A stretch of DNA of 64,000 nucleotides from Candidatus Latescibacterota bacterium (lineage in GTDB: Bacteria; Latescibacterota; UBA2968; UBA8231). Positions 35,235 to 53,434 of the stretch are shown piece by piece; the stretch's first letter is position 1, and the number at the start of each line of letters is the position of its first letter. The stretch covers positions 2,560,001 through 2,624,000 of the forward strand of contig CBDETK010000013.1 of NCBI GenBank assembly GCA_965242865.1, written 5' to 3'. The notes under the pieces were generated by a model, which worked only from the letters and a program-made list of their open reading frames with translations, was not told the DNA's origin and made no database searches. A program made the position numbers and the translations under genes.

Positions 35235-35313
35235 AGTGTGGCTTTGGAGCGTCCGAGAATGTATTGTATATTGACCTCAGTTGTTTTCTGGCAATCATGC
35301 ACGGGAGTGAATA

Positions 35314-35655
35314 ATGGATTTCAGTAATCCTCTGATCTATATAATTCCCGGACTAGCCATTTTTGGCTATATCGTAAAATGGATTATTAAGGTAGAAAGA
35401 TGGATGGGCAAGATAGACGAGTCTATACGCTTGCTTGAAGAAGGTGCCCGCGAAATGAGGACGGATATTACTTCTATTCAGGTTGTGGAGAAAAACAGCC
35501 CGCTCCGCTTGACGGAAGCGGGGCACTCTATTTCCGAGGCGTTGGATGTTAAGGATCGCCCTGTTGGGTGCTTGGAATCGATGCCGATTTTAATACGTCA
35601 TAAGTCCTTGAAAAACAACGACTTACCCCCCCCCCCCCCGAAAATTCTCCGCTAG
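35314..35655 (+). pseudogene. AT-rich small membrane protein, apparently truncated by the cassette starting at 35559
   Basis: TM plus coiled-coil N-terminus; the last ~31 codons are cassette sequence shared with 53017-53116. Confidence 0.5.
35600..35639 (+). promoter_or_regulatory. Palindrome TAAGTCcTTG-AAAAA-CAAcGACTTA followed by a C14 tract
   Basis: Directly visible; conserved in copy B with C17. Confidence 0.7.
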
Positions 35656-35992
35656 CACCAAGCACTAAACTCTCTACTTCTCAGCATAGGCCGACAGCTC
35701 GTGTGCGGCCGTTGGGCGTCGCGTCGGTCTGGCCGCGTGGCCCCAAGCGCACGCTGCCGTGCGGCCGTTGGGCTGATCCACGTTTACGGCACCACCCCCG
35801 CAACTCGTCTGCCAAAGACCGAGGGCGGAATCTCCTCGCCCCAGATACCGCGAGAACACTAGCAAAGGCGCACCCAAAGCAAGGGGCGCGTCCTGAGCAC
35901 TCCAAGTTAGGCCCTAGGGCTAGCTCTGCCTCTTTCGGGGCGTCATGCCCCTCTTCCAATCTCCACACCATATCCACACAAAGGAGCAAAAC

Positions 35993-36336
35993 ATGCCTTC
36001 GTTGAGATCGATAAAAACCCTGTTTGGATTCGTCCTTTTGGGCATCGTCGGTGCTTGGATGGGCTGCTCAGACTCCGCGCCGGTCGCCTCTCGGCCGGCG
36101 GGCAAAGCCACCTGTTCCTTATGCGAATTCTTGGGCGACGAGACTTACACCGCTGCCGACGGGTTGGCCGCCCCCGAAAGCCCTGACACCACCGAGACCG
36201 AAGCCGAAGCTGACAGTACATCTGGGCGGACTATGGCACGAGTAAAATTCAGCATGCCGACCTAAATGGATCAAACGTCGCAGACCTCGTCACGGGATTG
36301 AATGTTCCATCGAGCATCGCGCTGGAATTTCGGTAG
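35993..36336 (+). pseudogene. Internally deleted LRR/YWTD-family lipoprotein gene
   Basis: N-terminus near-identical to the 52667 gene; 36217-36336 in another frame encodes YIWADYGTSKIQHADLNGSNVADLVTGLNVPSSIALEFR*, a YWTD repeat. Confidence 0.82.
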
Positions 36337-36486
36337 TCATGGAGGTGAGGCGACGCGGCAGAACGGGCTAAGGAGCCGAGCGGGAAGGATGGCGACCGCC
36401 TCTACGACTTGTTCAACACGCCCCAAGGTAGGATCTTCAGACCGCTTCTAAGGATTGCCGTAAAAACGCAGACGCGAGGAGTAGCG

Positions 36487-36972
36487 ATGAATGCAGTGCG
36501 GCTGTTGTGCCTAGGGGTCGCGCTCGCGGCTTCTACCGCTTTAGATGCCGATAAAACCACCCGCCGAATCCGGCAAGCCGCGATTGCCTCGACCATCGCC
36601 GTGGTGGCCGAAGGCGACTTTGAGCCGAGAAGTATCGGCAGCTACAGCCTCCGAATATACGCCGCAACCGATCCCCGCTTCCCTTACGACCGCTTTATTG
36701 CCGGGGCTGTCCGGCCACGCGACGGGGTCGTCGAAAGGGTGCAATTCTCCGATCTGGACGACGACGGATCGCCCGAAATCGTCGTGATTGTTCGCTCGGT
36801 TGGCTCCGGCGGCTATCTCTCGGCAGACGCCTTTCAATTGCACGAGAAAGCCCCGACGTGGCTGGCGACGGTGGCTGGCTTGGCGCCGGACGACGACCCC
36901 ATTCGCGCCCTTGCAGTCAAGCTCAAAGCGGGGCCTGAACCGCCTGCGGTTCCAGACGACGACCGCCCGTAG
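36487..36972 (+). CDS. PliI-family inhibitor of I-type lysozyme
   Basis: Signal peptide; VVAEGDFEPRSIGSYSLRIY, RPRDG and RSVGSGGYLSADAF motifs; GAGGAG RBS. Confidence 0.78.
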   Translation: MNAVRLLCLGVALAASTALDADKTTRRIRQAAIASTIAVVAEGDFEPRSIGSYSLRIYAATDPRFPYDRFIAGAVRPRDGVVERVQFSDLDDDGSPEIVVIVRSVGSGGYLSADAFQLHEKAPTWLATVAGLAPDDDPIRALAVKLKAGPEPPAVPDDDRP

Positions 36973-38191
36973 CCGGCGACGCGCTGCTGCATATTTCCGG
37001 GTGCTGCTTTAGGTAAGCAAGCAAGGCTTCCGCGGCCCACTGGTGGCCCGTCGCATTCCAGTGGCCATCGTGCGGCCAGTGCGAGTCTTTAATTCTCGCC
37101 CCACGCCCGAGGATGTAGTCGTATTCCTCAATGACGGGAATGCCCCGCGCCTCGGCCATGCTGTTCAGCCGATCGACGAGGAAGTCCTCGCCTCTCCGGC
37201 TGTGTACAGCCAAGATCACCAACGCGCTCCCGTCGCGGTCCGTGCGTTCCTTGAACTGGTCGAGGCCGAAAGCCGTGAATTCGCAGGCTTCCTCAAAGGC
37301 CGGCCCGGCCTCGGGCATTCGCGTTGTTGGCGTCCAATCGGCTAAAAGGGGTGCATAGCGGGGACGCTGGCTGAGAAGCCCCGCCCATGCAATGGCTCGG
37401 GGATGGGCATCGCGCGGAAAGAAGGCCCCTCTCTTGGCATCGAGGTAGTTTACGAACCGAGAAACCAGCCTCATGCGATTCACGAGCTGGTCTTGCAAGG
37501 GCCGCGGCAATCGGTGCTTTCGCCAATCGGGATCAGGCGGGCGCAGTTTGATGGTTCCGTCCGCCCGTCTGGCCGCAGACATCCACGGAAACCGATCCGG
37601 ATCCAACCCGGACGTGAGGGCGTGCAGAATCGCGGAGTTGTTTTGGAAATCGTTTGGAACGAAGACGAGCACTACGAGTTTGGGGCGCAGAGGCCGGGCG
37701 AACTCATCATAAAACGGCAGTTGATTGATCTGCCCGGTTCCAGAAATCCCAAAGGCCGAGGTCGTGACGTCCAGATGGGGTGCTGCCCGACCCGCGAGTT
37801 GTTCCAGCCGAACTTGAAATTTGTCGGCGATGGGAACGTGCATCGCATCGACAAAGGAATCGCCGATTATGGCGATGTGGCAGCTCTCGGCCGCACGGGC
37901 ATGGCTCGGGGGTTCGCGGTCCACGAAGCCCAGACTGTTGGTGCGGGAAACGGTCCAGAAATCGAGAAAATTCGTATGGCGCACCTCTGCGTTGGGTTGC
38001 CGGATGAGGCCCACCTTGGGAACGAAGCGAAAGGCACGCTCTTTGCTCGTAAACGGCCACGGACGAAGCAGGCGGAAATACGCCTCCCCGGCGATGGCGA
38101 TTAGGACCAGCCCGGCGATGAACAACAGCGCGTTCCAGCCGACCAATTGCAGCACCCGGCGGATGCGTGGCGGAGTTAAACCGTTGTCCAC
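36923..38191 (-). CDS. SGNH/GDSL hydrolase-like membrane-anchored protein
   Basis: TNSLGF, IIGDSF, FVPND and DGHWNATGH motifs. Confidence 0.78.
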   Translation of the reverse strand: MDNGLTPPRIRRVLQLVGWNALLFIAGLVLIAIAGEAYFRLLRPWPFTSKERAFRFVPKVGLIRQPNAEVRHTNFLDFWTVSRTNSLGFVDREPPSHARAAESCHIAIIGDSFVDAMHVPIADKFQVRLEQLAGRAAPHLDVTTSAFGISGTGQINQLPFYDEFARPLRPKLVVLVFVPNDFQNNSAILHALTSGLDPDRFPWMSAARRADGTIKLRPPDPDWRKHRLPRPLQDQLVNRMRLVSRFVNYLDAKRGAFFPRDAHPRAIAWAGLLSQRPRYAPLLADWTPTTRMPEAGPAFEEACEFTAFGLDQFKERTDRDGSALVILAVHSRRGEDFLVDRLNSMAEARGIPVIEEYDYILGRGARIKDSHWPHDGHWNATGHQWAAEALLAYLKQHPEICSSASPATGGRRLEPQAVQAPL

Positions 38192-39312
38192 TCGCCCCGG
38201 TTGTTGGACGATTCGACCGCGGCCGCGACGAACTTCATGCCGGCGACGCCCTCTTGCACGCCCGGATGGGGAAAGGCCGCGGGCACATCCGGCTGGCCGC
38301 GGCGCGTGCGGATGAGCCGCTCGATCGTGGTGTGGAGGTTGGCGAGGGCCGGGAAGAAGTCCTCGTGGTGCCCCGAAGGCACCCGCAAGTACGAGACAAC
38401 GGCCGCGGGCAGGCCAAATTCAGCACCAATCCAATAGGTAATGTCGCGGCCATCGCCGCGGCGCAGGAGCAGGCATTCGGCCCGTTCCTGCCGCCACTCG
38501 ATGGAGCCTTGAGTGCCAAAGACGCGGAAGCCATTGTCGTTGCGGTAGCCGACCGCGATTTGCGTGGCCGTGATCAGGGCGGTGCCGCCGTTTTCCAGCT
38601 CGCCGATCACGTTGAAATCGTCGTCGAGTGCGCGGCCTTCAACAAAGGTGTTGAGGCGCGCCGACACCCGCTCAATGGCCAGCCCGGTCACCCAAGTCGC
38701 GGCGATGAAGGCATGGGTGCCAATGTCGCCGCCGCAATTGGAAATACCCGTGCGCTCGGGATCGGTGCGCCAAGACGCCTGCTGCTGGCCGGTCTGTTCG
38801 AGGGCCGTGGCCAGCCAGCCCTGATTATACCAAGAATCCACCTTGCGGATTGGGCCGATTTCGCCGCTCTGGATCATTTCTTTGGCCAGCATCATCATGG
38901 GATGGCCCGTATAGGTGTGGGCCAGCACAAAGGGCACGGACTCGCGCTCGACAATGCGCGCCAAGTCCTCGGCTTCGGCCACCGTCATGGTCATTGGCTT
39001 TTCGCAGAGCACCGGGATGCCGGCCTGCAAAAAGGCTTTGGCTGGCTCGTAGTGGGCGAAGTTGGGGGTGACGATGGTGACGTAATCAAGGGCTTGCTCG
39101 CCGCTTTGCGCGGCCGCCAACAGGGCCTGATAGGTGGGATACCCGGCAATGCCGTAGTCGTCGGCCGCGCGCATGGCCGCCGCGGGGTCGGACCGCAGCG
39201 CGCCAGCGACCAATTCGCGGCTGGCGTCGAGCGCGATGGCGCGGTTGTGAACCATGCCAAAAAAGGAATCCGGGCCACCGCCGCCGATCATACCTACTTT
39301 GAGTTTGTTCAT
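38176..39312 (-). CDS. Gfo/Idh/MocA family oxidoreductase
   Basis: GMIGGG, IVTPNFAH, CEKP, YNQGWL and DIGTHA motifs; AGGAG RBS. Confidence 0.92.
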   Translation of the reverse strand: MNKLKVGMIGGGGPDSFFGMVHNRAIALDASRELVAGALRSDPAAAMRAADDYGIAGYPTYQALLAAAQSGEQALDYVTIVTPNFAHYEPAKAFLQAGIPVLCEKPMTMTVAEAEDLARIVERESVPFVLAHTYTGHPMMMLAKEMIQSGEIGPIRKVDSWYNQGWLATALEQTGQQQASWRTDPERTGISNCGGDIGTHAFIAATWVTGLAIERVSARLNTFVEGRALDDDFNVIGELENGGTALITATQIAVGYRNDNGFRVFGTQGSIEWRQERAECLLLRRGDGRDITYWIGAEFGLPAAVVSYLRVPSGHHEDFFPALANLHTTIERLIRTRRGQPDVPAAFPHPGVQEGVAGMKFVAAAVESSNNRGEWTTV

Positions 39313-39338
39313 AATGTTCTCCTAGTGGATTGTGGGTC

Positions 39339-39435
39339 TAGAAGCGTTCACGGTCTAGAAGGGCGGTCGCGGGGGACGCGCCCCTACGTGTCGCAACGTG
39401 CGTATTAAAAACGCATCCGACTTGGGGCTGTCAAA
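39339..39435. repeat. 97-bp perfect direct repeat copy 1 (contains a REP-like unit and minus-strand TTGACA)
   Basis: Identical to 40009-40105. Confidence 0.96.
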
Positions 39436-39453
39436 CGCCGGAGGCAGTTAAAA

Positions 39454-39801
39454 TCAACCAATGATGGTTTTGACTATCCGCCGAAGTTGGTCTTGGTCCG
39501 CCGGTTGCAGTTGCCCCAGCTTTTTAATGACCAACCCTTTTTCGATGGTAGTGATCACCGGCTTTACGACCGAAGGTTTGAGCAGTCCGGCTTGCCGCCA
39601 GCCAGCTATCGAGAATTCTCCGAGTGTTTGCATTGATTCAACTCGGCTTGTAACTGCTGCGATGACGACATCTGGTTTGGCAGCGTTATAAGCGGATGTA
39701 CTGATGACCGTTGCCGGGCGTTTTTTATGGCTGGTTTGGTCGGTAAAAGGGAACGGCACCAAGACGAGGTCGCCGAAGCTATAGGTTGTCGTATGCTGCA
39801 T
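39454..39801 (-). CDS. PemK/MazF family toxin
   Basis: GDLVLVPFPFTD...KKRPA...GLLKPS motifs. Confidence 0.88.
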   Translation of the reverse strand: MQHTTTYSFGDLVLVPFPFTDQTSHKKRPATVISTSAYNAAKPDVVIAAVTSRVESMQTLGEFSIAGWRQAGLLKPSVVKPVITTIEKGLVIKKLGQLQPADQDQLRRIVKTIIG

Positions 39802-39997
39802 CCTCTGAATTGTCCCAGACTCGATTAAAGCTAGCCTCAGCGGTCCTTAATGCAGCCTGAGTTAGTTCCCGCTCCTGATCTTTGTGGTAGAGGAAATCGA
39901 TGAAATCCTCAACCGTGGCAAGGCGTTCCGGCGGCAGTAATTGGAGTTTGTGAAGCACCTGTTGAATGAGTGCTTGTTGGTCCCTAGGTGAAATCAT
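39779..39997 (-). CDS. Putative antitoxin (DUF2281-like)
   Basis: LPPERLATVEDFIDFL...VWDNSEDAAYDNL; overlaps the toxin start. Confidence 0.75.
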   Translation of the reverse strand: MISPRDQQALIQQVLHKLQLLPPERLATVEDFIDFLYHKDQERELTQAALRTAEASFNRVWDNSEDAAYDNL

Positions 39998-40008
39998 CGC
40001 AATTCCCT

Positions 40009-40105
40009 TAGAAGCGTTCACGGTCTAGAAGGGCGGTCGCGGGGGACGCGCCCCTACGTGTCGCAACGTGCGTATTAAAAACGCATCCGACTTGGGGCTG
40101 TCAAA
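40009..40105. repeat. 97-bp perfect direct repeat copy 2
   Basis: Identical to 39339-39435. Confidence 0.96.
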
Positions 40106-40106
40106 T

Positions 40107-40853
40107 TCACGGGACGCGCAGCACGGCCGGAGGTAGGCCCTGTTGCAATTGGCTGGGGTCCAGCCCGCTGTTGAAGGCATAGCGTTTGTAGGCCAGCACC
40201 AGCGAGATGTTGGCTTGACGTATTTCCACGCGGCGCGGCAGGTACAGCGCGGCTGCGCGGCGGTATTCTCCCAACTCGCGGAGCAGGACGTCGCCTGCGG
40301 GCAGCGGGCGGCTCTCGCGCACCACCAAGCCGCGGCGCAAATCCAGCCACGCCCGTCGCCCGTCGGTAAGCGCGACCACCGCACGGTCGGCGCGCGGATA
40401 CTCGACCGGCTCGGCGATGGAACCCGGCTCGACGAGGCCGAGCAAGGCGTAGCGCAGATCGCCGGCCCCCAAGTCCAGCCCCGTCAGCGTGGTTAGCAGC
40501 CGGCCGCGCACCGTTCCTTTTAGAGGCTGGTCCATGCCGCGGCCATACACGGTCAGGCTGTCGCCTTCGAGTAGAGCCGTAAAAATGTGGGTGAAAAAGG
40601 GGCCGCGCACTTCAACGCGGAAGAGATCGGGGTTGATTAGCTGCACGAGGGCTGTCCCCCGGTCGCGCCGCGCGCCGCGCCGCAGCTCAATGGCCGCTTC
40701 GGCCGTCAGGTCATCGAACTGGGCCAGAGAGGCCGAGGCCGCGAGCAAGGCGGCCGGTCCTTGGGCCGCGTCCCAGCCTTGGCGCACCACCGGCGGCGGG
40801 GTGCAAGCGAGCGCGAGGGCGCAGAGCGCGAACCGCTTCAACCACACGCGCAT
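40107..40853 (-). CDS. LolB/DUF4292-like lipoprotein
   Basis: Lipobox ALAC; PDLFRVEVRGPF; translationally coupled to the TPR gene. Confidence 0.6.
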   Translation of the reverse strand: MRVWLKRFALCALALACTPPPVVRQGWDAAQGPAALLAASASLAQFDDLTAEAAIELRRGARRDRGTALVQLINPDLFRVEVRGPFFTHIFTALLEGDSLTVYGRGMDQPLKGTVRGRLLTTLTGLDLGAGDLRYALLGLVEPGSIAEPVEYPRADRAVVALTDGRRAWLDLRRGLVVRESRPLPAGDVLLRELGEYRRAAALYLPRRVEIRQANISLVLAYKRYAFNSGLDPSQLQQGLPPAVLRVP

Positions 40854-42745
40854 CACGGCAGCAGCTTGCGCCGGACCTCTTCGTTGTCCGGCGCGAGTTC
40901 CAGCACCTTTTGCCAGTGGGCGCGCGCCTCGCCCGGTTTGCCGAGCGCGCTGGCAATATCGCCGGCGTGGTCGAAGATCACGGCCTGTTCCTCGGGATCG
41001 CCCTCGTCCATCTGCTCCAAGGCTTGTTGTAGGTAGTGTTCGGCCTGCGCCAGCTCGCCGAGGCGGAAGTAGGCCCAACCCATGCTGTCGAGAAACGCGC
41101 TGTTGTCCGGCTCGATCGCGATCGCCTTCTCCAAGAGCTCGACCGCTTCGGTCAGCCGCATGCCCTTGTCCGCGTACATGTAGCCGAGGTAGTTGAGGGC
41201 GTAGGCGTCGTTTGGGTCGATCGCCAAGAGGCGTTGAAAGGTCTCGATGGCGCGATCGAAGTACTCGTCGCGGCCGAGTTTGCGCGAAGCCTGCTCATAG
41301 CAGGAGCCGAGGTAAAAGAGCGCGTGGCTCTCGTCGCCGGCGAGCGCGACCGCCCGCTGTAGCTTCTCCAGCGCGGCTTCCCAATGCTCCAATTCTTCTA
41401 GTGCGATGCCCCAGTGCAAAAAGGTCGGGCTGTACGCAGAGTCGAGCGCGGCCGCTGTTTCGTATTGGGCCAGCGCGGCTTCCCACTGCCCCTGCCGCCC
41501 CAAGCCGATGCCCCACCGCACGTGCAGCACGGCGTCGTCCGGGGCTACGGCGAGTGCTTGGCGATAGACAGCAATGGCCTCTGCCCAAGCGTCTTGTTGC
41601 TCTAGCGCGAGCCCCCAGTACAGATATATGTCAATGGCGTCGGGCAGGCGCTCGAGGCCGCGCTGGTACACGGCGATGGCCTCGTCGTAGCGCTCGGTGT
41701 TCTCCAAGACGGTCCCCCAGTACAGGTAAATCTCGCTGCTGTCCGGCATGGCTTGGGCCGCTTGGCCGAGGACGGCGGTGGCGGAATCGTAATCCTCCAA
41801 GTAGATGTAGTAGCGCACTAGGTCGGTCCACTGCTCGACCGTTTGGGGTTGCATCTCGACGATGCGCTTAAAAACCAACGTGGCTTGGTCGTACTGGCCG
41901 GCCTCGGACAGGGCCACTCCCAAGTGATAGAGCACCTCGGCGCCCTCTTCAGCGAGAATGTCCTCTAGGTCGTGCTCGGTGACCATGAGCCGCGCCAAGT
42001 AGTAAGGGACGCTGCTGTCGGGCAGGTGTCTAGCGGCTTTTCGGTAGATGGCGATGGCCTCGTGGCGGTGCTCCTGCGCCAGCTTGAGTTCGGCTAGACC
42101 CAGCCAAGCGTCCTCGACCTCGGGATCGGCCGCGAGGACCCGGTGATAGATGCGCTCGGCCTCTTTTTGCCGGTTGATGCGAAAAAAAATGCCGGCGATG
42201 TCCACCGCGACCTCGGGCGGCACTTGCTCTTGGGCGAGCACCCCCTCAAAGAGCGGAGCGATTTGCTCGGGCTGGCCCGTTTCAAAGTAGAGATAGGCCA
42301 AGTGGCGGTAGAGCGGCCAGTTGGCCGGCTCGTAGCGCAGCAGTTGTTCGATGTGGCCGATGGCACGCTCGCGGTCCCCTTCGCGCTCCAAGAGCCGAAT
42401 CAGCATGCGGCGCAACCGCACTTGGCTGCCTTCCAATGCCAAGCTCGCGTGGGCAAAGTGGGCGGCCATCAGGGGGTCGTCGATGCGCTGGTAGTTGTAA
42501 GCGAGACGGGCGTAAATGGTGGGCGAGGCCGGGTCGAGGTCGGCGGCCGAGCGCAGGGCGACGATCGCGCCGAAGTAGTTGTGCTGGGCTTCAAAGACCT
42601 TGGCCTTGACAAAGTATTGCATAGCTTGGTCGGCGTTGGTCGGCCCGGCGGGCGCGGGCGCGTTGTGGCCCCTCAGACCCGCGCAGCCGCCCGCGGACAG
42701 CGCGAGGACGCAGAGCAGGGGGAGGAGATGCGAGACATTGTTCAT
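40853..42745 (-). CDS. TPR repeat lipoprotein
   Basis: Lipobox GGC, many TPRs, ALNYLGYMYA...FLDSMGWAYF. Confidence 0.88.
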   Translation of the reverse strand: MNNVSHLLPLLCVLALSAGGCAGLRGHNAPAPAGPTNADQAMQYFVKAKVFEAQHNYFGAIVALRSAADLDPASPTIYARLAYNYQRIDDPLMAAHFAHASLALEGSQVRLRRMLIRLLEREGDRERAIGHIEQLLRYEPANWPLYRHLAYLYFETGQPEQIAPLFEGVLAQEQVPPEVAVDIAGIFFRINRQKEAERIYHRVLAADPEVEDAWLGLAELKLAQEHRHEAIAIYRKAARHLPDSSVPYYLARLMVTEHDLEDILAEEGAEVLYHLGVALSEAGQYDQATLVFKRIVEMQPQTVEQWTDLVRYYIYLEDYDSATAVLGQAAQAMPDSSEIYLYWGTVLENTERYDEAIAVYQRGLERLPDAIDIYLYWGLALEQQDAWAEAIAVYRQALAVAPDDAVLHVRWGIGLGRQGQWEAALAQYETAAALDSAYSPTFLHWGIALEELEHWEAALEKLQRAVALAGDESHALFYLGSCYEQASRKLGRDEYFDRAIETFQRLLAIDPNDAYALNYLGYMYADKGMRLTEAVELLEKAIAIEPDNSAFLDSMGWAYFRLGELAQAEHYLQQALEQMDEGDPEEQAVIFDHAGDIASALGKPGEARAHWQKVLELAPDNEEVRRKLLP

Positions 42746-42789
42746 AATGAAAAGTAAACCTGTATTGGCGGTATCTGGGAAGTCGCGTA

Positions 42790-42975
42790 CTATGCCATCG
42801 CCTCCATGAGCGCGTCGCGGAATTTCACAAAGCTGTGCGAGCGATTGCAGGCCGGATTGATGCGAGCGGCAATGGCACGCGCCGCTTCTACGGGAAACAG
42901 CCGCGGGAGCAATTCACGCAAGAATGCCTCCATAGAAGGCTCTTCGACCAAAATCTCCAGATAGGGATTCTCCAT
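42790..42975 (-). pseudogene. DUF4276-like (TOPRIM-related) gene with internal deletion
   Basis: LEILVEEPSMEAFL (N-terminus) joined directly to NRSHSF (C-terminus) in only 61 aa. Confidence 0.7.
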
Positions 42976-44204: not shown

Positions 44205-44228
44205 CGGTGGTCTCCGTTGGAGGGAAGT

Positions 44229-45074: not shown

Positions 45075-47247
45075 GGCCTATAAGCTCTAGTACCAACGCG
45101 CCCAGCGGCGGCAGGTGCAACCGCGCCGACTGCGGGCGGCCATGGCAAGCGACCGGCTCGGTTTGCACCCAGCCGCCGTGGCCTAGGCCGCTCCCGCCGT
45201 AGATTTCGGCGTCGCTGTTGAGCACCTCGCGGTACGGCCCGGCCGCAGGCAGCCCGAGTTGGTAATCCGCGCGGGGGACTGGGGTAAAATTGCAGACGAA
45301 AATCAGGGGAGGTTCGCCCTCGGCGCGGCGCACAAAAGCCACCACGCTCTGGGCGGCATCCGAGCAATCGATCCATTCAAAACCATCGGGCTGCGCATCG
45401 GTGCGGTGCAGGGCCGCGCAGCGGCGATAGAGCTGGTTGAGGTCGCAGAGCCAGCGATAGACGCCGGCGTGCCCCTCGTCGTCGAGCAGGTGCCAAGGCA
45501 GTTCGCCTTGGTGATCCCACTCTTCCCACTGGGCCAACTCGGCCCCCATAAAGAGCAGCTTTTTGCCGGGGTGCCCGTACATAAAGCCGTAGAGCAAGCG
45601 CAAGTTGGCCCGCTGCTGCCAAGCGTCCCCGGGCATCTTGCTCAAGAGCGAGCACTTGCCGTGGACGACCTCGTCATGCGCCAGCGGCAACACGAAGTTT
45701 TCGCTGTGGGCGTAGAGCAGGCCAAAGGTCAGGTCGTCTTGGTGGTGGCGGCGGTGGATCGGGTCGCGCTGCATGTAGCGCAGCACGTCGTTCATCCAGC
45801 CCATGTTCCACTTGAAGTGGAAGCCGAGGCCGCCGCCGGCGACCGGCCGGGAAACTTCCGGCCAAGCGGTCGATTCCTCGGCGATCATCAAGGCGTCCGG
45901 GCAGTGCTCGCCGATGGCCGTGTTGAGCTGCCGCAGGAAATCGATGGCTTCGAGGTTTTCGCGCCCGCCGTGAGCGTTGGGCACCCATTCCCCTTCGGAG
46001 CGCGAGTAGTCGAGGTAGAGCATGGAAGCCACCGCATCGACGCGCAGGCCGTCGAGGTGAAAGCGTTCGAGCCAAAACAGGGCATTGGCAATGAGAAAGG
46101 AGCGGACTTCGGCGCGGCCGTAGTTGAATATGCAGGTCTGCCAGTCGGGATGCCGGCCTTGGCGCGGGTCGCGGTGCTCGTAGAGGCTGGTGCCGTCGAA
46201 TTGAGCCAAGCCGTGGGCGTCGCTAGGGAAGTGCGCCGGCACCCAGTCGAGAATCACCCCGATGGCGTGGCGGTGGCAGTAGTCGATGAAATAAGCAAAG
46301 TCCTCGGGCGCACCAAAGCGCGCGCTCGGCGCGAAATACCCGGTTCCTTGATACCCCCACGAGCCGTCAAAGGGATGCTCGGCCACCGGCATCAGCTCGA
46401 TGTGGGTAAAACCGAGCGCGGCCACGTGGGCGACCAATTGGTGAGCCAGCGTGCGATAGTCGAGATTGCGCCGCCACGAGCCGAGATGGACCTCGTAGAT
46501 GGCGAGGGGTGCTTCCAACCCGTTGTGCGCTCGGCGCTCGGCCATCCAAGCGTCGTCGCCCCAAGCGAACGCATCGCCCCGGCAGACCACCGAAGCGGTG
46601 CGGGGGGGCCGTTCCGTGGCCAAGGCAAAGGGATCGCTCTTGAGCAGGATGGTTCCTTGGCGACTGAGGATTTCGTACTTGTAGAGCGCGCCCGCGCCCA
46701 CCTCCGGGACGAACAGTTCCCACACCCCGGACGCGCCCAGCGAGCGCATGCAGTGCAGCCGGCCGTCCCAGTGGTTGAAGTCGCCGACCGCGCTGACTCG
46801 GCGGGCATTCGGCGCCCACACCGCAAAGTACGTGCCCTCGGCCCCGTCGATGCAGCGCGGATGCGCCCCCAGCAACTCGTAGGCGCGGTAGTGGGTTCCT
46901 TCGTTGAAGAGGTATTGGTCTTGGGACGCCAACTGCGGCCAGAACGAGTACGGATCGCGGCAGCAGCGAACCGCGCCCTGCGCGTCGGTCACCGCCAGAT
47001 GGTACGCAAAGGACGAGCGGCGGCCGGCGATCCGCGCCTCAAACAATCCCTCGGCATGGGTCTTGGCGGCCTGAAAGCTCGCGCCTTGCCCCCCCCGCTC
47101 CACGACCTGCACGCTCGCCGCCTCGGGCCAGAACACGCGCACGACCCAGCCCTCGTCTAAGGGGTGCATCCCCAAGTGCGAGAACACATCGGCGCATTCG
47201 CCGTGCAAAAGGGCCTCCATTATCTGCGGATCAAGCGTTGTCTGCAT
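45067..47247 (-). CDS. glgB: 1,4-alpha-glucan branching enzyme
   Basis: [31 protein letters not shown] and KWNMGWM motifs. Confidence 0.96.
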
Positions 47248-47474
47248 GGTCGCACTCGGATTTCGGGGTTGAGCATTCTTAGAGAAGATAGGCCAATTTA
47301 GGGGAACTACAAGCAAACCCTAACGCGCGCCCGTTGCCGAGCAAGGCCGTCGCCCCGTCGCCCTGATTCCGCAAAGTTGGGAAGCGTATCGTATTGTTAT
47401 ATTTTTAGTTGAGGCGAGGGCGACAGCGCAACGTCCGCTTTTTTAAGCGCAAAACCACCCGACTTACTTCGACT

Positions 47475-48806
47475 ATGGACCAAAAAATCGCCACCTCCGG
47501 CTGGGGGCTGTACCCGTGCGTCGCCGCCTCGGTTCGGCGTGCGCGCTACCTAAGCGACCTGTGCCGCGCTGTTGCGGCCCCGATTTTGCCCCAAGGCAAT
47601 TGCCGGTCCTACGGCGACGCCTGCCTATACGAGCGCGTCGTCTCCACCCTGCCCCTCAAGCACCTGCTCGACTTCGATCGGCAGCGCGGGCTTTTGCACG
47701 CCCAAGCCGGCATTACGCTCGCCGAGATCATCCGCTTTGCCCTGCCCCAGGGCTTTTTCCCGCCCGTTACGCCGGGGACCAAGTTCCCCACGCTCGGCGG
47801 CTGCATTGCCGCCGATGTCCACGGCAAAAACCACCACGTCGAGGGGTCTATCGCCGCCTTTGTCGAGTCGCTGGACATGGTGTTGGCCGATGGCTCAACC
47901 GTGCGCTGCTCGCGCAGCCAGCGCGCCGATCTGTTTTGGGCCACGCTGGGCGGCATGGGCCTGACGGGGTTTATCTACGCGGCGACACTGCGGCTCAAAA
48001 AGGTGCCGTCGGCGTACATCCGGCAGCGCGCCATTAAGACGGCGAATTGGGCCGAGACGTACCGCGTTTGCCAAGAGACTCAGCAGCAGTACACCTATTC
48101 GGTCGCGTGGATTGACGGCCTGCAAACGGGCCGGCAGCTAGGGCGCGGTCACGTGTTGTTGGGGGAACACGCCAGCGCGAGCGCACTCAAGGGCAAGCCG
48201 CCCTTTCCCCTCCACGGCGCTAGCCGCTGGGCCGTGCCGTTTTCTGTGCCCAGCGGCATGCTCAATGCCCAATCCCTGAAGGCGTTTAACGCCCTTTACT
48301 ATCATCGCCAAGTGCGCCGGGCGACCGACGCGCTCGTCCACTACGACCCGTATTTCTATCCGCTCGACGCGGTCCGCGGCTGGAATCGCCTATATGGCCG
48401 CCGGGGCTTTTTGCAGTACCAAGTCGCCGTGCCAGCCGCCGATGGCGCGGAGGTGATCGGCGAGCTGCTCGGGCGCATTGCCCGCCAAGGCGTGGCTTCG
48501 CCCTTGGCCGTGTTCAAGACCTTTGGGACGCCGAGCGGCGGCCTGCTTTCCTTTCCCCTCGCGGGCTACACCCTCTCGCTGGACATCCCCTTGCGCGACG
48601 CTGGGACGATTCCCTTCTTGCGCACCCTGAACAAAACCGTCGTCGAGGCCAAAGGGCGCGTCTATTTGGCCAAGGACGCCATTTTGGAAAAGGAGGATTT
48701 CGCCGCCATGTATCCGCAGCTCGACCCATTCAAAGCGGTCAAGCGCAAATACGACCCGGAACACCGCTTCCGCTCCTGCCTGTCCGACCGCTTGGGGATC
48801 ACGTGA
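47475..48806 (+). CDS. DprE1-like FAD-binding oxidoreductase
   Basis: RSYGD, PVTPGTK, DVHGKNHH, YSVAWID and GRVYLAKD motifs. Confidence 0.88.
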   Translation: MDQKIATSGWGLYPCVAASVRRARYLSDLCRAVAAPILPQGNCRSYGDACLYERVVSTLPLKHLLDFDRQRGLLHAQAGITLAEIIRFALPQGFFPPVTPGTKFPTLGGCIAADVHGKNHHVEGSIAAFVESLDMVLADGSTVRCSRSQRADLFWATLGGMGLTGFIYAATLRLKKVPSAYIRQRAIKTANWAETYRVCQETQQQYTYSVAWIDGLQTGRQLGRGHVLLGEHASASALKGKPPFPLHGASRWAVPFSVPSGMLNAQSLKAFNALYYHRQVRRATDALVHYDPYFYPLDAVRGWNRLYGRRGFLQYQVAVPAADGAEVIGELLGRIARQGVASPLAVFKTFGTPSGGLLSFPLAGYTLSLDIPLRDAGTIPFLRTLNKTVVEAKGRVYLAKDAILEKEDFAAMYPQLDPFKAVKRKYDPEHRFRSCLSDRLGIT

Positions 48807-49528
48807 GGGCCTTGGTTTTAGGGGCCAAATCGGCGATTGCCCAAGCCATCGTCGAGCACCTCGATGGCTACGACTTTGCGCTGGCCGCCCGCCGGTGCAT
48901 CGATCTAGAGCCTTTTGCCGCGGACTTGCGGCTCAGACGCTCGTGCCGCGTAGAGCTGATCGAGTTTGACGCCTTGTACTTTGCAGCCTTGGCGGACTTG
49001 CCGCAACAGGTTCACGAGCGCGTCGGCCCCTTCGACTTGGTCGTCCTCGCCTTCGGCTACTTCGGCGACGCAACGCACGATACAGACGAGATCATCCGCA
49101 CCCTCAACACCAACCTCACCGGCGCGGCCCTCGCCCTCGCGCATTTGGCCAATTACCTAGAGCAAAAGGGCACGCCGGCCGGTATCATCGCGATCTCGTC
49201 CGTATCCGGCGACCGGGGCCGCCAAGGCAATTACGTCTATGGAGCGGCTAAGGGGGGGCTTTCGGTTTTCTTGCAAGGGCTACGCAATCGGCTGGCTAAG
49301 ACGCCGGTACACGTCCTGACCGTCAAGCCCGGGTTCGTCGATACGCCGATGACCGAGGGGCGGCTAGACGGGCTTTGGGGGGTCGCTACGCCGGACAAAG
49401 TGGCGGCCGACATCGTGCGCGCCTATCGGCAAAAGAAGGATGTGCTCTACACGCCGTTTTTTTGGCGTTGGATCATGCTCGCGGTCCGAAGCATCCCCGA
49501 GCGCATTTTTAAGAGGCTGAAGTTGTGA
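48803..49528 (+). CDS. DprE2-like short-chain dehydrogenase
   Basis: SSVSGDRGRQGNYVYGAAK and KPGFVDTPMT motifs; coupled to the DprE1-like gene. Confidence 0.85.
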   Translation: MRALVLGAKSAIAQAIVEHLDGYDFALAARRCIDLEPFAADLRLRRSCRVELIEFDALYFAALADLPQQVHERVGPFDLVVLAFGYFGDATHDTDEIIRTLNTNLTGAALALAHLANYLEQKGTPAGIIAISSVSGDRGRQGNYVYGAAKGGLSVFLQGLRNRLAKTPVHVLTVKPGFVDTPMTEGRLDGLWGVATPDKVAADIVRAYRQKKDVLYTPFFWRWIMLAVRSIPERIFKRLKL

Positions 49529-49588
49529 CGAGTTGACATGGGTGCGCGTCCTCAACGCCGACGCGAGAGGATGAAGTGCTATTTGCAG

Positions 49589-49608
49589 AATAGAAATTCA
49601 TTTCTATT
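49589..49608. promoter_or_regulatory. Perfect inverted repeat AATAGAAAT-TC-ATTTCTATT, putative operator
   Basis: Ends 10 bp upstream of ATG 49618. Confidence 0.55.
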
Positions 49609-49617
49609 TTACCAAAC

Positions 49618-50751
49618 ATGATTTCTAGATTGCTCAAAAGGCAAATTGACGCGCAACTCGCGCGCTATCCGGCCGTGGCCCTGAGCGGAGCGCGCCAGAC
49701 GGGTAAGACGACCTTAGCTAAAGCATTCGAGGGCCATTATTTCGACCTAGAAAATCCCCGCGACCAACTGCGTCTCGACGTCACGTGGGAGGAGCGGATG
49801 GGAACGCGGGAATTGGTCATCCTCGATGAAATCCAAGCCATGCCCGAACTCTTTCCGCGCTTGCGCGCCGCCATTGACGCGGACCGCAAGCGCTGTGGTC
49901 GCTTCCTGATGCTCGGCTCGGTTGCGCCCGCCCTGATGCAGCGGGCCGGTCAGGCGCTCACTGGCCGCCTAGCCCAACTCACCGGCTTTTTGGCGCGGGA
50001 ACGGCCTGTTGAAGAGTGGGATCGCCTGTGGCAACGGGGGGGGTATCCCGACGGCGGCATCCTCGACGCCAGCCGCTTTCCCGACTGGCAGCAAAACTAC
50101 CTCGCGCTCATGGCCCAGCGCGACCTTCCCACTTGGGGCCTGCCGGCCCAGCCCGTGCTCATCCAGCGGTTCTTCCGCATGTTGGCCGCGCTGCACGGCC
50201 AGATGTGGAATGCTTCCCAACTCGGCAAGAGCTTGGGATTGAGTTATCACACCGTCAATACATACGCCGACTTCCTAGAGCAAGCCTTCTTGATTCGTCG
50301 GCTGCCAGCCTATACGGCGAACCTGCACAAACGCTTGGTCAAGCGTCCCAAGCTCTATTGGCGCGACACCGGCCTCTTGCATGCCTTGCTGGGTCTCGAC
50401 CGCGACCGCGATGTATTGGACCAGCCGTGGGTTGGAACGAGTTGGGAAGGATGGGTGATTGAGCAGCTATTAGGCCACCTGCAAAGCACGGGCCGCGCTT
50501 TTGAGGCGTTTTATATGCGGACCAGCGACCAGCGGGAGATCGACCTCGTGTTGGAGTATCGCGGCCACCGCTGGGCCTTTGAGATCAAGCTGAGCAGTGC
50601 CCCGGACGCGGCGGATCTGCGGCGTTTGCAAGACCATGCCGCGCTCGTCAGCGCCGACCGGGTCGCCCTAATCAGCCGCACGACCGAGCCGGTCTGTGGC
50701 AAAGCGGTCGCCTCGCTCAATCTGGCCGCGGCCCTCGATTGGCTGCTCTAA
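49618..50751 (+). CDS. AAA_14 ATPase with DUF4143 domain
   Basis: GARQTGKT, ILDEIQ, RGGYP, KRPKLYWRDTGL and EIDLV...FEIK motifs. Confidence 0.9.
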   Translation: MISRLLKRQIDAQLARYPAVALSGARQTGKTTLAKAFEGHYFDLENPRDQLRLDVTWEERMGTRELVILDEIQAMPELFPRLRAAIDADRKRCGRFLMLGSVAPALMQRAGQALTGRLAQLTGFLARERPVEEWDRLWQRGGYPDGGILDASRFPDWQQNYLALMAQRDLPTWGLPAQPVLIQRFFRMLAALHGQMWNASQLGKSLGLSYHTVNTYADFLEQAFLIRRLPAYTANLHKRLVKRPKLYWRDTGLLHALLGLDRDRDVLDQPWVGTSWEGWVIEQLLGHLQSTGRAFEAFYMRTSDQREIDLVLEYRGHRWAFEIKLSSAPDAADLRRLQDHAALVSADRVALISRTTEPVCGKAVASLNLAAALDWLL

Positions 50752-50900
50752 ACATCCCGTCATCCTCTTAGAAGCGGTCTGCTCCGCAAATTCTACCTTG
50801 GGGCGTGTTGAACAAGCCGTAGAGCCGGTGCTCGGCTCCTCAGTCCCTATCTGCCGCGTCGCCTCAACGCCATGCAAGCCGGGCCGGTGATCCTCCACGA

Positions 50901-52667
50901 CTACCAAACACCCAGCGCGAGGTACTTTGGAAACATCAACCCCCTAAGGAGGACTCGGGGATTTGAGCCATCCAAGTTGGCGCTCCCCACGTCACCCGGG
51001 ACCTGGTTCACAAAGGTACTCCCGTTCTGGTCCACCCAGTATATCTTTTCGCGCTCCGCATCCACCGCGATGCCCCATAGCTGCGTCACCCCCGCGGGGG
51101 TGACGACTTCGGCGTCTGAGCCATCCCCATCCAAGTCGGCCCGCTGAAGTCTAGTGCCCGTGGCCATGGTCCAGCTCACCCAGTATATCTTTCTGTTCAC
51201 CAAATCCAGCGCGACGCCCGATGCATTATTCGTGTTCGTGTTCGCAAGGAAGTCTTGGCGGTTTGAGCCATCCAAGTCGGCAGACTCAATCTTATTCAAA
51301 ACCCAGTCCGTCCAGTATATCTTTCCGCGCTCCGCATCCACCGCGATGCCCGTTGGAGTATTCAATGTCGAGGTGATGATGTCTGTGGGGGCTGGCGGGT
51401 CATCCAAGTTGGCAGACCCAATAGCGCCGGGGTTCTGGTCCGTCCAGTATATCTTTCTGTTCACCAAATCCAGCGCGACGCCCTGTGGCGAACCCAGGTT
51501 CGAGGCGATTCTTAGCGTGTCTGAGCCATCCAAGTTGGAACGCCGAATCGAACCGGCTGCCATCGCGTCCGCCCAGTATATCTTTCTGTTCGCCACATCC
51601 ACCGCGATGCCATTTGGATTACTTCCGTCGAGGTATCTTGGGATCCGACCATCGGATCGTACATGACCAAAATGAACTCGTGGCAAGGGGATGAAGGATC
51701 GGGCGACTGAGCCATCCAAGCTGACACGCCAAATCTTTGACCGTCTTTCTGTTCGGGGCGAATTTCTGTCACCGTCCGTCACGTATAGGGCGGGCCCTAC
51801 TGCTCCCTGCCCTTCATCCGGTTCTTCTGGATAGACCTGGACGGTTTCGACGCGGGGGTATTTTTCTAGTACCGCTTCGACGCGGAGGCCGCTTGTTATC
51901 GCGGCGGCGAGTTGTTGGTTGGCCGCGTGCTGGCTAAGGGCGTTTTCCATCACGCCCAGCCATTGCAGGTTGGTCAGGCTGGCCAACGGACTCACGTCCG
52001 CAATGTCGTTGTCACCTAGATTGAGAAATTGCAGATTGGTTAGGCCAGCGAACGGCTGTACATCCGTAATTTCGTTGCCCCACATATCCAGCGTGCGCAA
52101 GCTGATCAGGCTGGCCAGCGGACTCGCATCCGCCACCTTGTTGCCCCACAGCGACAACGTTTGAAGGTTGGTCAGGCTGGCCAACGGCTGCACATCGGTA
52201 ATCGCGTTGCCCCGCAGATACAGCGTTGTCAGGGCCGTTGCGTGTTCAAGGCCGGCCACGCTCTCAATGTTTTTATAGCTCGCGTCAAGTTCGGTTAGGG
52301 CCGCCAAGTCCGCCGGGGTCAGTGCTCCTTGCGGGCGATCCAGTGCCTCCCGCACCGCTCGCTCCAAATTGGCGTCGGCGAACTCCACGATGGCCGATTG
52401 GGTGCTGTCGGCGTCAGCGTCGGTCTGGGTGCTATCGGCGTCGGCGTCGGCGTCGGCGTCGGTTTGGGTGGTGTCGGGGCTTTCCCGGGCGGGCAGCCCG
52501 TCGGTAGCGGTGTAGGCGTCGTCGCCCAAGAACTCGCACAAGGAACAAGTGGCTTTGCCGGCTGGCCGAGAAGCCACCGGCGCGGAGTCTGAGCAGCCCA
52601 TCCAAGCAGCGACGATGCCCAAAAGGACGAGCGCAAACAGGGTTTTGAGAGATTTCAACGAAGTCAT
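50901..52667 (-). CDS. Lipoprotein with internalin-like LRRs and YWTD (LDL-receptor class B) beta-propeller
   Basis: Lipobox WMGC; FADANLERAVR cap; LxxLxLxxNxI repeats; KIYWTD/KIYWAD repeats; AAGGAG RBS. Confidence 0.88.
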   Translation of the reverse strand: MTSLKSLKTLFALVLLGIVAAWMGCSDSAPVASRPAGKATCSLCEFLGDDAYTATDGLPARESPDTTQTDADADADADSTQTDADADSTQSAIVEFADANLERAVREALDRPQGALTPADLAALTELDASYKNIESVAGLEHATALTTLYLRGNAITDVQPLASLTNLQTLSLWGNKVADASPLASLISLRTLDMWGNEITDVQPFAGLTNLQFLNLGDNDIADVSPLASLTNLQWLGVMENALSQHAANQQLAAAITSGLRVEAVLEKYPRVETVQVYPEEPDEGQGAVGPALYVTDGDRNSPRTERRSKIWRVSLDGSVARSFIPLPRVHFGHVRSDGRIPRYLDGSNPNGIAVDVANRKIYWADAMAAGSIRRSNLDGSDTLRIASNLGSPQGVALDLVNRKIYWTDQNPGAIGSANLDDPPAPTDIITSTLNTPTGIAVDAERGKIYWTDWVLNKIESADLDGSNRQDFLANTNTNNASGVALDLVNRKIYWVSWTMATGTRLQRADLDGDGSDAEVVTPAGVTQLWGIAVDAEREKIYWVDQNGSTFVNQVPGDVGSANLDGSNPRVLLRGLMFPKYLALGVW

Positions 52668-53032
52668 TTTTTGCTCCTTTATATGGTTGGGGAAGAAATG
52701 GTATGGAGGTTGGAAGAGGGGCATGACGCCCCAAAAGAGGCGGAGTTAGCCCTAGGGCTATCACTTGGAGCGCTCAGGATGTGCGCCCCTTGCTGTGGGT
52801 GCGCCTTTGCTGGTGTTCTGGCGGCGTCCGGGGCGAGGAGATTCCGCCCTCGGTCCTTGGCAGACGGGTTGCGGGGGTGGTGCAGTAAACGGGGATCTGC
52901 ATAAAGGCCGCACGGTGGCGTACGCTTGGGATCGTGCGGCCAGACCGACGCGACGCCCAATGGCCGCGCACGAGCCGTCGGCCGATGCTGAGAAGTAGAG
53001 AGTGTAGTGCTTGGTGCTAGCGGAGAATTTTC

Positions 53033-53075
53033 GGGGGGGGGGGGGGGGGTAAGTCGTTGTTTTTCAAGGACTTAC
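53033..53075 (-). promoter_or_regulatory. Palindrome GTAAGTC-TTG-5bp-CAA-GACTTAC plus C17 tract (copy B)
   Basis: G17 at 53033-53049; palindrome at 53049-53075. Confidence 0.7.
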
Positions 53076-53221
53076 GACACATTAAATCCGACGACGATTC
53101 CAAGCACTCAACAGGGTTTTGCCCCATAGCAAGGCCCCTGCCTGATATGAAATGCTTAACCATCGTCTCGTTCATCTCTCGTTCATCCGCCAACCAATGG
53201 TGCCAAATTTGCCGCTGTAAC

Positions 53222-53282
53222 GGGCAGGCACGGGGGCCTGCCCCAACGGGATTCTTACGGGCAGGCACGGGGGGCCGCCCCT
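53222..53282. repeat. Two GTAG-family REP-like units (GGGCAGGCACGGGGGCCTGCCCC)
   Basis: Tandem imperfect palindromes at 53222-53247 and 53259-53282. Confidence 0.65.
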
Positions 53283-53434
53283 GATTGTAGGTTCTTTGCC
53301 GTCGTCAAATAAAAGCCTAAACACAGAAGCCGCAACCGAATCACACAAAAAAATATAGTGTTCAGACAGCCAAAAGAAAAGTTCCGCCGAGCCATGTTCG
53401 ACGGAGCCTGTGCTGCAAGGGATATAGACGCTCC

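Follow-up and report, generated by a model that had tools for sequence, protein, structure and literature searches.

For the dealings of bacterial symbionts with their sponge hosts, the foremost candidates are eukaryote-like repeat proteins. That they occur in large numbers had been noted, and how they are multiplied and controlled had been an open question. Two related stretches in the genome of a Candidatus Latescibacterota bacterium raise it in a concrete form. They lie within a 64,000-nucleotide region of contig CBDETK010000013.1 (here called the window) at 35559–36452 on the forward strand (copy A) and 50767–53116 on the reverse strand (copy B), and an earlier reading took them for a two-copy cassette in which a constant leader and trailer frame a variable lipoprotein payload of leucine-rich repeats (LRR) and YWTD repeats. 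We compared both stretches with the whole genome (G000; 5.99 Mb in 13 contigs, in which the family members carry locus names beginning with F) and with genomes of related species. We consider it likely that they belong to a family of mobile insertion cassettes (MICs) that lack a transposase and spread by IS5-type ends. The terminal repeats, boundaries, resident insertion sequence (IS) and MITEs (miniature inverted-repeat transposable elements), empty sites in relatives, substitution pattern and modelled fold on which this view is built are all shown by the data.

The cassette family, its ends and its empty sites

The inverted-orientation homology that first drew attention to the two stretches holds. 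Five pairs of arms are 86–91% complementary (35559–35639 with 53036–53116, 35626–35889 with 52783–53046, 35911–35974 with 52695–52758, 35974–36214 with 52446–52686 and 36395–36441 with 50783–50829); the trailers have a 24-mer in common; an AAGGAG ribosome-binding site, a poly-C tract and a near-identical lipoprotein N-terminus were found in both copies; and the flanks of the two are not related. The outlines of the copies have to be redrawn. The abrupt start that had been placed at CCCTGTTG is merely the 5′ truncation of copy A, and homology of copy B begins ~220 nt further upstream, at window position 53337. Copy B and 14 of 36 other loci start at this base, with an IS-like terminal repeat beyond it; a second common start of homology lies 162 nt further in, and the start point of copy A is unique to that copy. 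Nor does copy A have a payload of its own: what is left is a 90-codon open reading frame (ORF) and, past an internal deletion, the last YWTD blade alone, in another frame. The ORF at 35314–35655 into which copy A seemed to cut is a chimaera, an AT-rich gene fragment that reads through into the leader. Copy B is intact, and copy A is a decayed remnant, both 5′-truncated and internally deleted (Table 1).

The family extends far beyond two copies. With the 77 N-terminal residues as tblastn query, 37 loci were identified, all on the main contig, 28 of which have the poly-C leader, and the 434-nt leader of copy A has 46 matches in the genome, 18 of them covering at least 429 nt at 80–100% identity. 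Full-length close members of 474–596 amino acids account for 24 of the 37 loci (22 with LRR and YWTD repeats and two with a second, LRR-type C-terminus), and the others, which are more distant, are for the most part lipoproteins of ~300–690 amino acids that have LRR alone and generally no leader. Across the 276 pairs of full-length copies, median identity is 90.6% for the leader core, 89.3% for the constant coding half, 71.8% for the variable half and 68% for the trailer, the last rising to 93–98% among the copies that retain it; in eight loci the downstream homology stops 133–137 nt past the stop codon. The closest relative in our genus sample (G046) holds only ~3 related genes (76–78% identical) and three or four leader modules, and the expansion to ~28 copies therefore belongs to this lineage, after its split from that relative. 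Among named genomes, a distant match to a Candidatus Poribacteria metagenome-assembled genome (34% identity) is a lead only.

Complete cassettes are 2.4–3.0 kb long and are bounded by terminal inverted repeats of 20–50 nt. Six members have both repeats, in inverted orientation and 2446–2969 nt apart; the repeats are perfect (20/20) at both ends in three of these and ~50 nt long in one copy. In the window, the right repeat is present in both copies, each of which it ends next to a TAA or TTA triplet; a left repeat is seen in copy B only, in degenerate form. The sequence-only reading was thus correct that the unit lacks a transposase (the lipoprotein gene is the sole long ORF of copy B) and mistaken that it lacks terminal repeats and target duplications. 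The 20-nt cassette repeat (up to three mismatches) occurs 18 times in the genome, 14 times at the ends of family members and twice at the trailers of family fragments, and the IS-type repeat has 95 matches at the same threshold. Triplets that flank the complete copies are identical (TAA or TTA) in four of six and follow a T-A/T-A pattern in all six. The flanking triplet is repeated directly and not inversely and thus represents a target duplication.

The same genome contains an IS with related ends. It is 935 bp long and present in two 100% identical copies, with 17-nt terminal repeats, TAA on both sides of one copy and a two-frame transposase with an A7 run at the frame junction. The two frames match NCBIfam transpos_IS5_3 (9.7 × 10−34 and 1.6 × 10−27, profile positions 2–124 and 120–258) and the Pfam families DUF4096 and DDE_Tnp_1; by these sequence features, which comprise a predicted DDE transposase, terminal inverted repeats and a short duplication, the element classifies as a member of the IS5 family. 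The genome also has further truncated copies and, at 65% identity, a second IS type. In their outer 11 nt, the cassette repeats equal those of the 935-bp IS and of stand-alone MITEs of ~135–215 nt, whose inverted ends are the same as those of the cassette. The MITEs also share sub-terminal segments with the cassettes, in the same order and at 91% and 94–100% identity: the cassette trailer is the MITE right arm, and a left arm with the matching sub-terminal segment lies upstream of several leaders. MITE left arms agree with the left end of the IS at ~21 of 25 nt by eye. IS copies, MITEs and cassettes are all flanked by TAA or TTA. The element is therefore not new in kind, as had been supposed, but fits the MICs. 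A match of its ends to an IS or MITE had been named in advance as a result that would speak against a dispersed cassette; the match was found, yet it explains the mobility.

Six of six cassettes with colinear flanks are absent from the matching site in relative genomes. G046, whose flanking genes are 91–94% identical and colinear with window 33200–53831, lacks window 50745–53369, which holds copy B, and there the end of an AAA_14/DUF4143 gene is followed, 15 nt on, by the flank with the GYD gene. At the site of copy A, two other relatives (G019 and G005) lack window ~35248–36473 and have a dppB-like gene and a PliI gene within 45–85 nt of each other; the absent segment, a foreign gene fragment together with copy A, is therefore an insertion. 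The AT-rich fragment is likewise missing from relatives at this site, and the DNA after 36452 is native intergenic sequence that is also found in G005 and G019. Four complete cassettes, F1850565p, F1921908p, F892072p and F1110524m, are absent from the G046 sites, which measure 184, 68, 164 and 61 nt there. The F1921908p site preserves a series of states: flank-TAA-cassette-TAA-MITE-TAA-flank in this genome, flank-TAA-MITE-TAA-flank in G046 and a single TAA in G019. In G046, a MITE occupies the F892072p site, bounded by the same TAA triplets. The flanks of F4748405p and F5564425p are more than 1 Mb apart in G046 and G019, with the breakpoints exactly at the cassette ends, and cassette copies therefore took part in genome rearrangement.

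Two side observations concern these sites. The native DNA at 36453–36475, directly after copy A, resembles the ~20 nt between terminal repeat and leader start in F3989374p, F5425472m, F5111775m and F1850565p, and the likeness may be a trace of a founder locus or of head-to-tail joining. At the F1850565p site, another genome (G023:C1 5453324 to 5454226) has ~900 nt of other DNA, compared with 184 nt in G046 and 65 nt in G019, and this intergenic site may be an insertion hot spot. An inversion between copies A and B was also considered and was not seen, given the colinearity of the window with G046.

The genome comparison that had been proposed for leader and trailer thus returned many copies with common boundaries and empty sites in relatives, and it supports a dispersed unit that is non-autonomous and equipped with expression and export signals of its own and with a gene of host-interaction type. 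A complete unit comprises, in order, the left terminal inverted repeat, a leader of ~670 nt, one gene for an exported lipoprotein and a trailer (the MITE right arm) ending in the right repeat. The transposase of the 935-bp IS, or a related one, would have mobilized it in trans into TAA or TTA targets with a 3-bp duplication, amplifying it to the present copy number after the split from G046, and the copies would later have become substrates for deletion, truncation and genome rearrangement. We infer the spread by an IS5-family transposase acting in trans with fair confidence, the empty sites in relatives giving it indirect support.

Several observations weigh against this account. Both terminal repeats are kept in only 6 of 28 copies, and many left ends are ragged or replaced. 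Because the repeats of cassette and IS are equal in the first 11 nt only, recognition by the transposase of the 935-bp IS is not assured, and the TAA beside the ends cannot always be distinguished from bases of the terminal repeat. Relative to its empty site, copy B has ~20 extra unmatched nucleotides on one side, and its left repeat is without the outer 6 nt, which are mutated (the empty site in G046 resumes at window position 53370). At F1850565p, the flanking direct duplication is not of a simple 3-bp kind but comprises ~17–20 nt of a hairpin. The MITEs that the relative carries at two cassette sites also fit recombinational exchange between related elements. Finally, no two cassettes are near-identical (pairwise identity is at most 97% for the constant coding part and 93% for the variable one); recent activity is for this reason not shown, and the family may no longer be moving.

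Some of these points would suit an ordinary dispersed family of paralogues that never transposed as a unit and beside whose copies MITE and IS ends landed later. Most copies lack one or both repeats, the left ends are of at least four kinds, the genome is rich in MITEs and in IS-type repeat matches, and the longer duplication at one copy is unlike an IS5-type insertion. The junctions between repeat arm and cargo are nevertheless identical in several copies, the 20-nt repeat is almost confined to family ends (16 of 18, including the two at family fragments), in copy B, F1921908p and F892072p the boundaries of the insertions relative to other genomes fall at the repeat ends, and the flanking host genes are not co-duplicated. 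We therefore regard later decoration of a paralogue family as unlikely and retain the mobile cassette as the better account.

The lipoprotein and divergence of its propeller

The payload of copy B is as first described, with LRR and LDL-receptor class B (YWTD) repeats, and Pfam finds only these families in it: Ldl_recept_b (PF00058; 2.3 × 10−25, 89 bits against a cut-off of 21) and LRR_4 (9.9 × 10−30, in four stretches), the latter with 66-nt tandem units at 51941–52209. In an AlphaFold2 model (mean pLDDT of 71.9), the linker is disordered and the LRR part forms an arc, followed by a propeller; strand and helix units alternate at residues 127–241, which supports an LRR domain in the predicted structure, and ~24 strands lie within residues 294–587, mostly at pLDDT 80–93. 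The best Foldseek match of the model is the LRP4 propeller (E = 1.3 × 10−18), followed by LRP6 and nidogen; the LDLR propeller is also matched, and E values for the four are 1 × 10−18 to 1 × 10−16 over ~300 columns. In the model, the payload is thus a six-bladed YWTD propeller of animal LDL-receptor type, with the number of blades read from the list of strands. A candidate lipoprotein signal is formed by a hydrophobic helix (residues 8–24 of the model) and the motif ..W-M/T/I-G-C that follows, the Cys being invariant in seven of seven aligned copies; the Trp at −3 is what we take to be an atypical residue for a lipobox. With fair confidence, we expect the product to be a surface or periplasmic lipoprotein that would bind something of the host.

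The two halves of the gene have diverged in different ways. We calculated substitution rates over up to 231 pairs from protein-guided alignments. Before residue ~272, the constant half has dN of 0.05–0.10, dS of 0.20–0.45 and dN/dS of 0.14–0.43; after it, the propeller half has dN of 0.35–0.64, dS of 0.27–0.72 and dN/dS of 0.73–1.87, values that come from the simple Nei–Gojobori method on an alignment of a repetitive domain and not from a site model, which is a further point to be set against our account. Non-synonymous divergence of the propeller half is thus 5–10 times that of the constant half, with similar dS. Because dS is similar and dN is raised, the propellers are about as old as the rest of the gene and have diverged by amino-acid replacement. 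Reading frames are open in 24 of 24 full-length copies (the C-terminal tail of F1940827p is aberrant and apparently frameshifted), and the YWTD, LDG and GIALD motifs are kept among the propellers. The pattern points to diversifying selection on a retained propeller scaffold with a putative host-facing surface. In the proposed history, leader, signal peptide, linker and LRR half would have been conserved after insertion, and the propeller half would have diverged mainly by amino-acid replacement.

Shuffling of payloads, as proposed in the sequence-only reading, is mostly not seen, as the same YWTD propeller is found in 22 of 24 full-length copies. A related possibility is a constant chassis with exchangeable payload, in which recombination at leader and trailer swaps C-terminal modules or gene conversion homogenizes the ends around old middles. 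The two copies with an LRR-type C-terminus in place of YWTD would fit it, as would the two alternative versions of the second leader module, the trailers that are up to 97.7% identical between copies of different propeller classes and the copies at rearrangement breakpoints. Older or unrelated middles would, however, give saturated dS, and the jump is confined to dN: median dS of the propeller and constant halves is 0.24 versus 0.27 within class I and 0.47 versus 0.31 between classes. Both LRR-tailed copies also lack the trailer and look like the products of fusion or deletion. Exchange of payloads thus seems improbable, and divergence in place within mobile cassettes is preferred.

Hypermutation of the propeller by a diversity-generating retroelement, to which localized and mostly non-synonymous divergence might have pointed, is very improbable, as the variation extends over ~290 codons and not a short C-terminal patch and the single reverse-transcriptase match in the genome (RVT_1, 40 bits), beside a large ATPase/nuclease-like ORF, has no similarity to any member of the lipoprotein family and no template/variable repeat pair except one 135-nt, 81% repeat within the locus. 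No template repeat that matches the variable region was found in this assembly. The RVT_1 locus itself (G000 C13 5488215–5488628 and neighbours), with a 525-amino-acid ORF beside a 933-amino-acid ATPase/nuclease-like ORF and a 417-amino-acid ORF, looks like a defence-type reverse-transcriptase locus.

The leader and its poly-C tract

Pairwise distances in the leader are 0.02–0.155, compared with dS of 0.2–0.45 in the adjoining coding part, such that the leader evolves ~3 times more slowly than synonymous sites. Its GC-rich hairpin unit has short matches in class-level relatives. The poly-C tract lies inside an upstream ORF with the motif ..M-C/R-R-K-S-L-K-N-N-x-L-(Pro)n; among the 28 copies, the uninterrupted C run ranges from 3 to 20 and whole tracts from ~8 to 26 nt, and tract length differs among paralogues and between species. 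These lengths and the frame counts below are taken from the assembly and may be wrong for homopolymers.

Beyond the tract, two of the frames end at conserved stops, 13 and 26 nt on, and the third remains open as far as the lipoprotein ATG in 21 of 28 copies. Summed over the 28 copies, stops number 10 in this long frame compared with 89 and 102 in the others, and in a composition-matched shuffle the frame was open in 68 of 2,000 trials. It ends at a TGA 10 nt past the lipoprotein ATG in 16 copies; the distance from tract to ATG varies (263, 266, 329, 350, 353, 362, 365, 380, 383 and 476 nt) and equals 2 modulo 3 in all 16 of these, including one of the four with the alternative second leader module. 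In copy A, which retains the open frame at 35640–36005, the same TGA closes it. A homologous cassette in G046 (75% identical, with a different small insertion in the leader) has 318 nt open and a TGA at +10, and its other frames stop at 11 and 19 nt. We saw no constraint on the long leader frame at the protein level (dN/dS of 0.79, compared with 1.26 and 0.52 in the other frames, and no excess of third-position changes). To judge from these substitutions, openness alone, and not the peptide, is what is conserved. Of the 24 copies with an intact leader start, the assembly shows the long frame for four, the ..KILR-stop frame for 13 and the remaining frame for seven; copy B, in a short frame, is presumed to be in the OFF state.

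As in a contingency locus, the homopolymer is placed such that a change in its length shifts the frame of the upstream ORF. In the two short frames, a ribosome would stop at once after the tract; in the long frame, ~115–160 codons would be translated, ending 10 nt inside the lipoprotein gene. The lipoprotein would then be ON by translational coupling, or translation of the long frame would shield the C-rich leader RNA from Rho. Untranslated C-rich RNA is a plausible loading site for Rho, and a rho gene is encoded in the genome (672.8 bits, cut-off 509). That slippage in the tract turns each copy on and off is a possibility suggested by the arrangement of the frames, and we hold it to be somewhat doubtful. 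Equally tentative is the wider proposal that the cassette-amplified lipoprotein, its diversified propellers and a portable poly-C slippage switch might form a three-part system resembling antigenic variation. As the module also precedes other genes for exported proteins, here and in sister species, slippage-driven phase variation would then be a general trait of the genus.

Searches for other regulatory signals gave little. Rfam has no match on 50600–53500 at E up to 1; a sigma-70 scan of 50700–53450 found 0 sites compared with a shuffle mean of 1.1, and terminator-like sites in it are at chance level. RNAalifold returned a fold for the 375 columns from poly-C to ATG, with covariation not above the control (114–222 of 500 shuffles reach the observed value). 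A four-pair helix between CUCC after the tract and GGAG of the ribosome-binding site is noted as a lead only.

The tract module is also found apart from the cassettes. The genome has 28 C or G runs of at least 13, compared with 1.5 expected, of which 22 are in the KSLKNNxL-polyC module and one in a variant of it; the remaining five are poly-G runs in a second conserved start module. In that second module, seen at eight or more loci, an AT-rich stretch is followed by an ATG, a few codons and a poly-G/C run of 9–19. The start-KSLKNNxL-polyC module occurs at nine places outside the gene intervals of the family, one of which is a gene-less leader fragment. Several of the non-family genes have the tract immediately before a signal peptide or in frame with one; the non-family ORFs have ~480–620 codons and a hydrophobic, signal-like segment directly after the tract, which suggests additional, putatively homopolymer-switched exported proteins in the genome. 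Four other species of the genus have the module with 17–24 C, once before another lipoprotein gene, and synonymous changes leave the KSLKNNxL peptide intact in other genes and species. G046 has the entire leader upstream of an unrelated secreted-protein gene as well. When the genus was searched for the poly-C module by exact pattern, matches came only from this genome (27) and G046 (4), a count that is too strict because the modules of other species carry one or two base changes.

Neighbouring features, habitat and known systems

Public sequencing runs labelled sponge metagenome contain the stretch, with shares of sampled words of 0.33–0.54 and 0.32–0.71 in two studies, and contigs from sponge runs differ from the unique flanks at 0–13 positions per ~500 nt. 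The best-matching sponge run may be the source sample and hence not independent support for the habitat. In four public runs, contigs end at cassette ends; no RNA runs are listed among the public runs that contain the stretch. The gene that adjoins copy A (36409–36972) matches PliI, a periplasmic inhibitor of invertebrate-type lysozyme (1.3 × 10−39); it is present at the copy A site in G019 and G005, is missing from G046 and fits life in an invertebrate host. Elsewhere in the window, two 97-nt direct repeats that are 100% identical (39339–39435 and 40009–40105) start with a motif resembling IS and MITE ends. Between them lie two small overlapping ORFs on the reverse strand (39454–39801 and 39779–40021), which in their size, overlap and sequence resemble a toxin–antitoxin pair. 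The gene at the window end has Asp-rich units of D-x-D-G-D-L-D type in 43–49-nt repeats (62921–63590) and probably encodes a calcium-binding repeat protein.

Table 1 Features of the two cassette copies and loci of the related start modules (window coordinates unless a contig is given)
Feature	Position	Strand	Remarks
Copy B, degenerate left terminal repeat	53349..53376	-	Type of the right end of the 935-bp IS; 53349–53371 agrees with it at ~31/38 positions by eye
Copy B, conserved leader of ~670 nt	52668..53337	-	84–92% identical in other copies
Copy B, GC-rich hairpin sub-repeat	53218..53281	-	1–4 tandem units depending on copy
Copy B, upstream ORF	53017..53175	-	In-frame ATGs 53175/53163/53082; ..MCRKSLKNNDL-(Pro)n-KILR; TAG 53019–53017; inside 83-aa ORF 53017–53268
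Copy B, poly-C tract	53033..53049	-	17 C, within the upstream ORF
Copy B, frame open from poly-C toward lipoprotein start	52679..53032	-	Closed by TAA 52681–52679, 14 nt before ATG
Copy B, lipoprotein gene	50901..52667	-	588 aa + stop; putative signal peptide (..AAWMGC), Asp/Thr-rich linker, LRR domain, YWTD beta-propeller
Copy B, trailer (MITE right arm)	50768..50900	-	20-nt cassette terminal repeat 50771–50790; TTA 50768–50770 on the + strand
AT-rich fragment of unrelated gene	35235..35558	+	Abuts copy A at its truncated 5′ end; paralogue elsewhere in genome, 56% amino-acid identity
Copy A, 5′-truncated leader	35559..35992	+	14 C at 35626–35639; start codon of upstream ORF lost
Copy A, gene remnant	35993..36336	+	N-terminal ~78 codons; deletion near 36214–36220; out-of-frame last YWTD blade 36220–36336 (..IALEFR stop)
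Copy A, trailer with right terminal repeat	36337..36452	+	End motif 36438–36452
Second 5′ module loci	G000 C13: 286111, 1273848, 1277969, 1847247, 2462705, 3492055, 3870535, 3875003
Non-family module ORFs	G000 C13: 1636400, 2391590, 3302154, 3887801(-), 4675726, 1931643(-), 2478261(-); C7: 3201(-)

Known systems resemble the cassettes in part. An MIC known from Bacillus cereus is MIC231. In the accounts of PMC4337579 and PMC3129680, an MIC is a passenger gene between IS-type inverted repeats that is moved in trans, and TALE-effector MICs with Tn3-type ends are described from Xanthomonas (PMC4337579). In their logic, the latter closely parallel the present units. The units reported here share with MICs the lack of a transposase, repeats related to a resident IS, short target duplications, cargo of host-interaction type, many copies per genome and decayed copies with one repeat or none. 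They differ in having MITE arms and ends of IS5 type, as opposed to Tn3 or IS231 type, with TAA/TTA as the target; a single kind of one-gene cargo in ~28 dispersed copies; and a conserved leader of ~670 nt with a homopolymer tract; here, we infer mobilization in trans.

The cargo recalls the proteins of Poribacteria, sponge symbionts for which LRR (PF12799) and LDL-receptor class B (PF00058) proteins with a proposed surface action toward the host have been reported (PMC3909097). The domain types are identical, and signal peptides or membrane anchors are found in both. In contrast to the present family, the part of that paper on these proteins gives 1–5 such genes per partial genome and says nothing on mobile-element ends, a shared leader, a homopolymer or selection (PMC3909097). 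A literature search on homopolymer phase variation in sponge symbionts or Poribacteria found nothing relevant. Control through a leader ORF by Rho-dependent attenuation is exemplified by tnaC in the account of PMC12360218. Here too, translation of an upstream ORF could decide downstream expression, and a rho gene is present; the input, however, would be a heritable homopolymer frameshift and not a metabolite or ribosome stalling. Our literature search returned no described case of a homopolymer-frameshifted leader ORF that controls a downstream gene.

Each component is already known singly: MICs, MITEs, IS5 elements, LRR/YWTD proteins of sponge symbionts and repeat-tract phase variation. Their combination, in which single-gene cassettes on IS5/MITE ends carry a diversifying propeller and a homopolymer-bearing leader ORF that overlaps the gene start, appears to be absent from the literature searched, which did not extend to the supplementary tables of PMC3909097. 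It offers a concrete route for the expansion of eukaryote-like repeat proteins, in the form of a single-gene cassette with empty sites in sister species, and a rapidly evolving surface of binding type, with dN/dS near or above 1 over ~290 codons in intact frames.

Phase-variable surface families of pathogens provide the closest parallel to the proposed switch. The opa repeat tract lies in the part of the gene that encodes the signal peptide, and Vlp and Vsp proteins have a conserved 5′ region and signal peptide, the rest being variable. Neisseria Opa and Mycoplasma Vlp/Vsp are both entered as such families in the timeline of PMC11868660. In common with them, the present family has many paralogues, a conserved 5′ region and lipoprotein signal peptide, a variable exposed part and, near each 5′ end, its own hypermutable simple repeat, which would permit combinatorial on/off expression. 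In contrast to them, the tract lies in a separate upstream ORF ~260–480 nt before the lipoprotein start and not in the gene or a promoter spacer, the copies are dispersed on transposon-like units in a sponge-associated bacterium, and switching is predicted from sequence. Should the poly-C leader ORF prove to be a switch, the means by which pathogens hedge their bets would be in use by a mutualist, which would imply that the sponge discriminates between variants of the bacterial surface.

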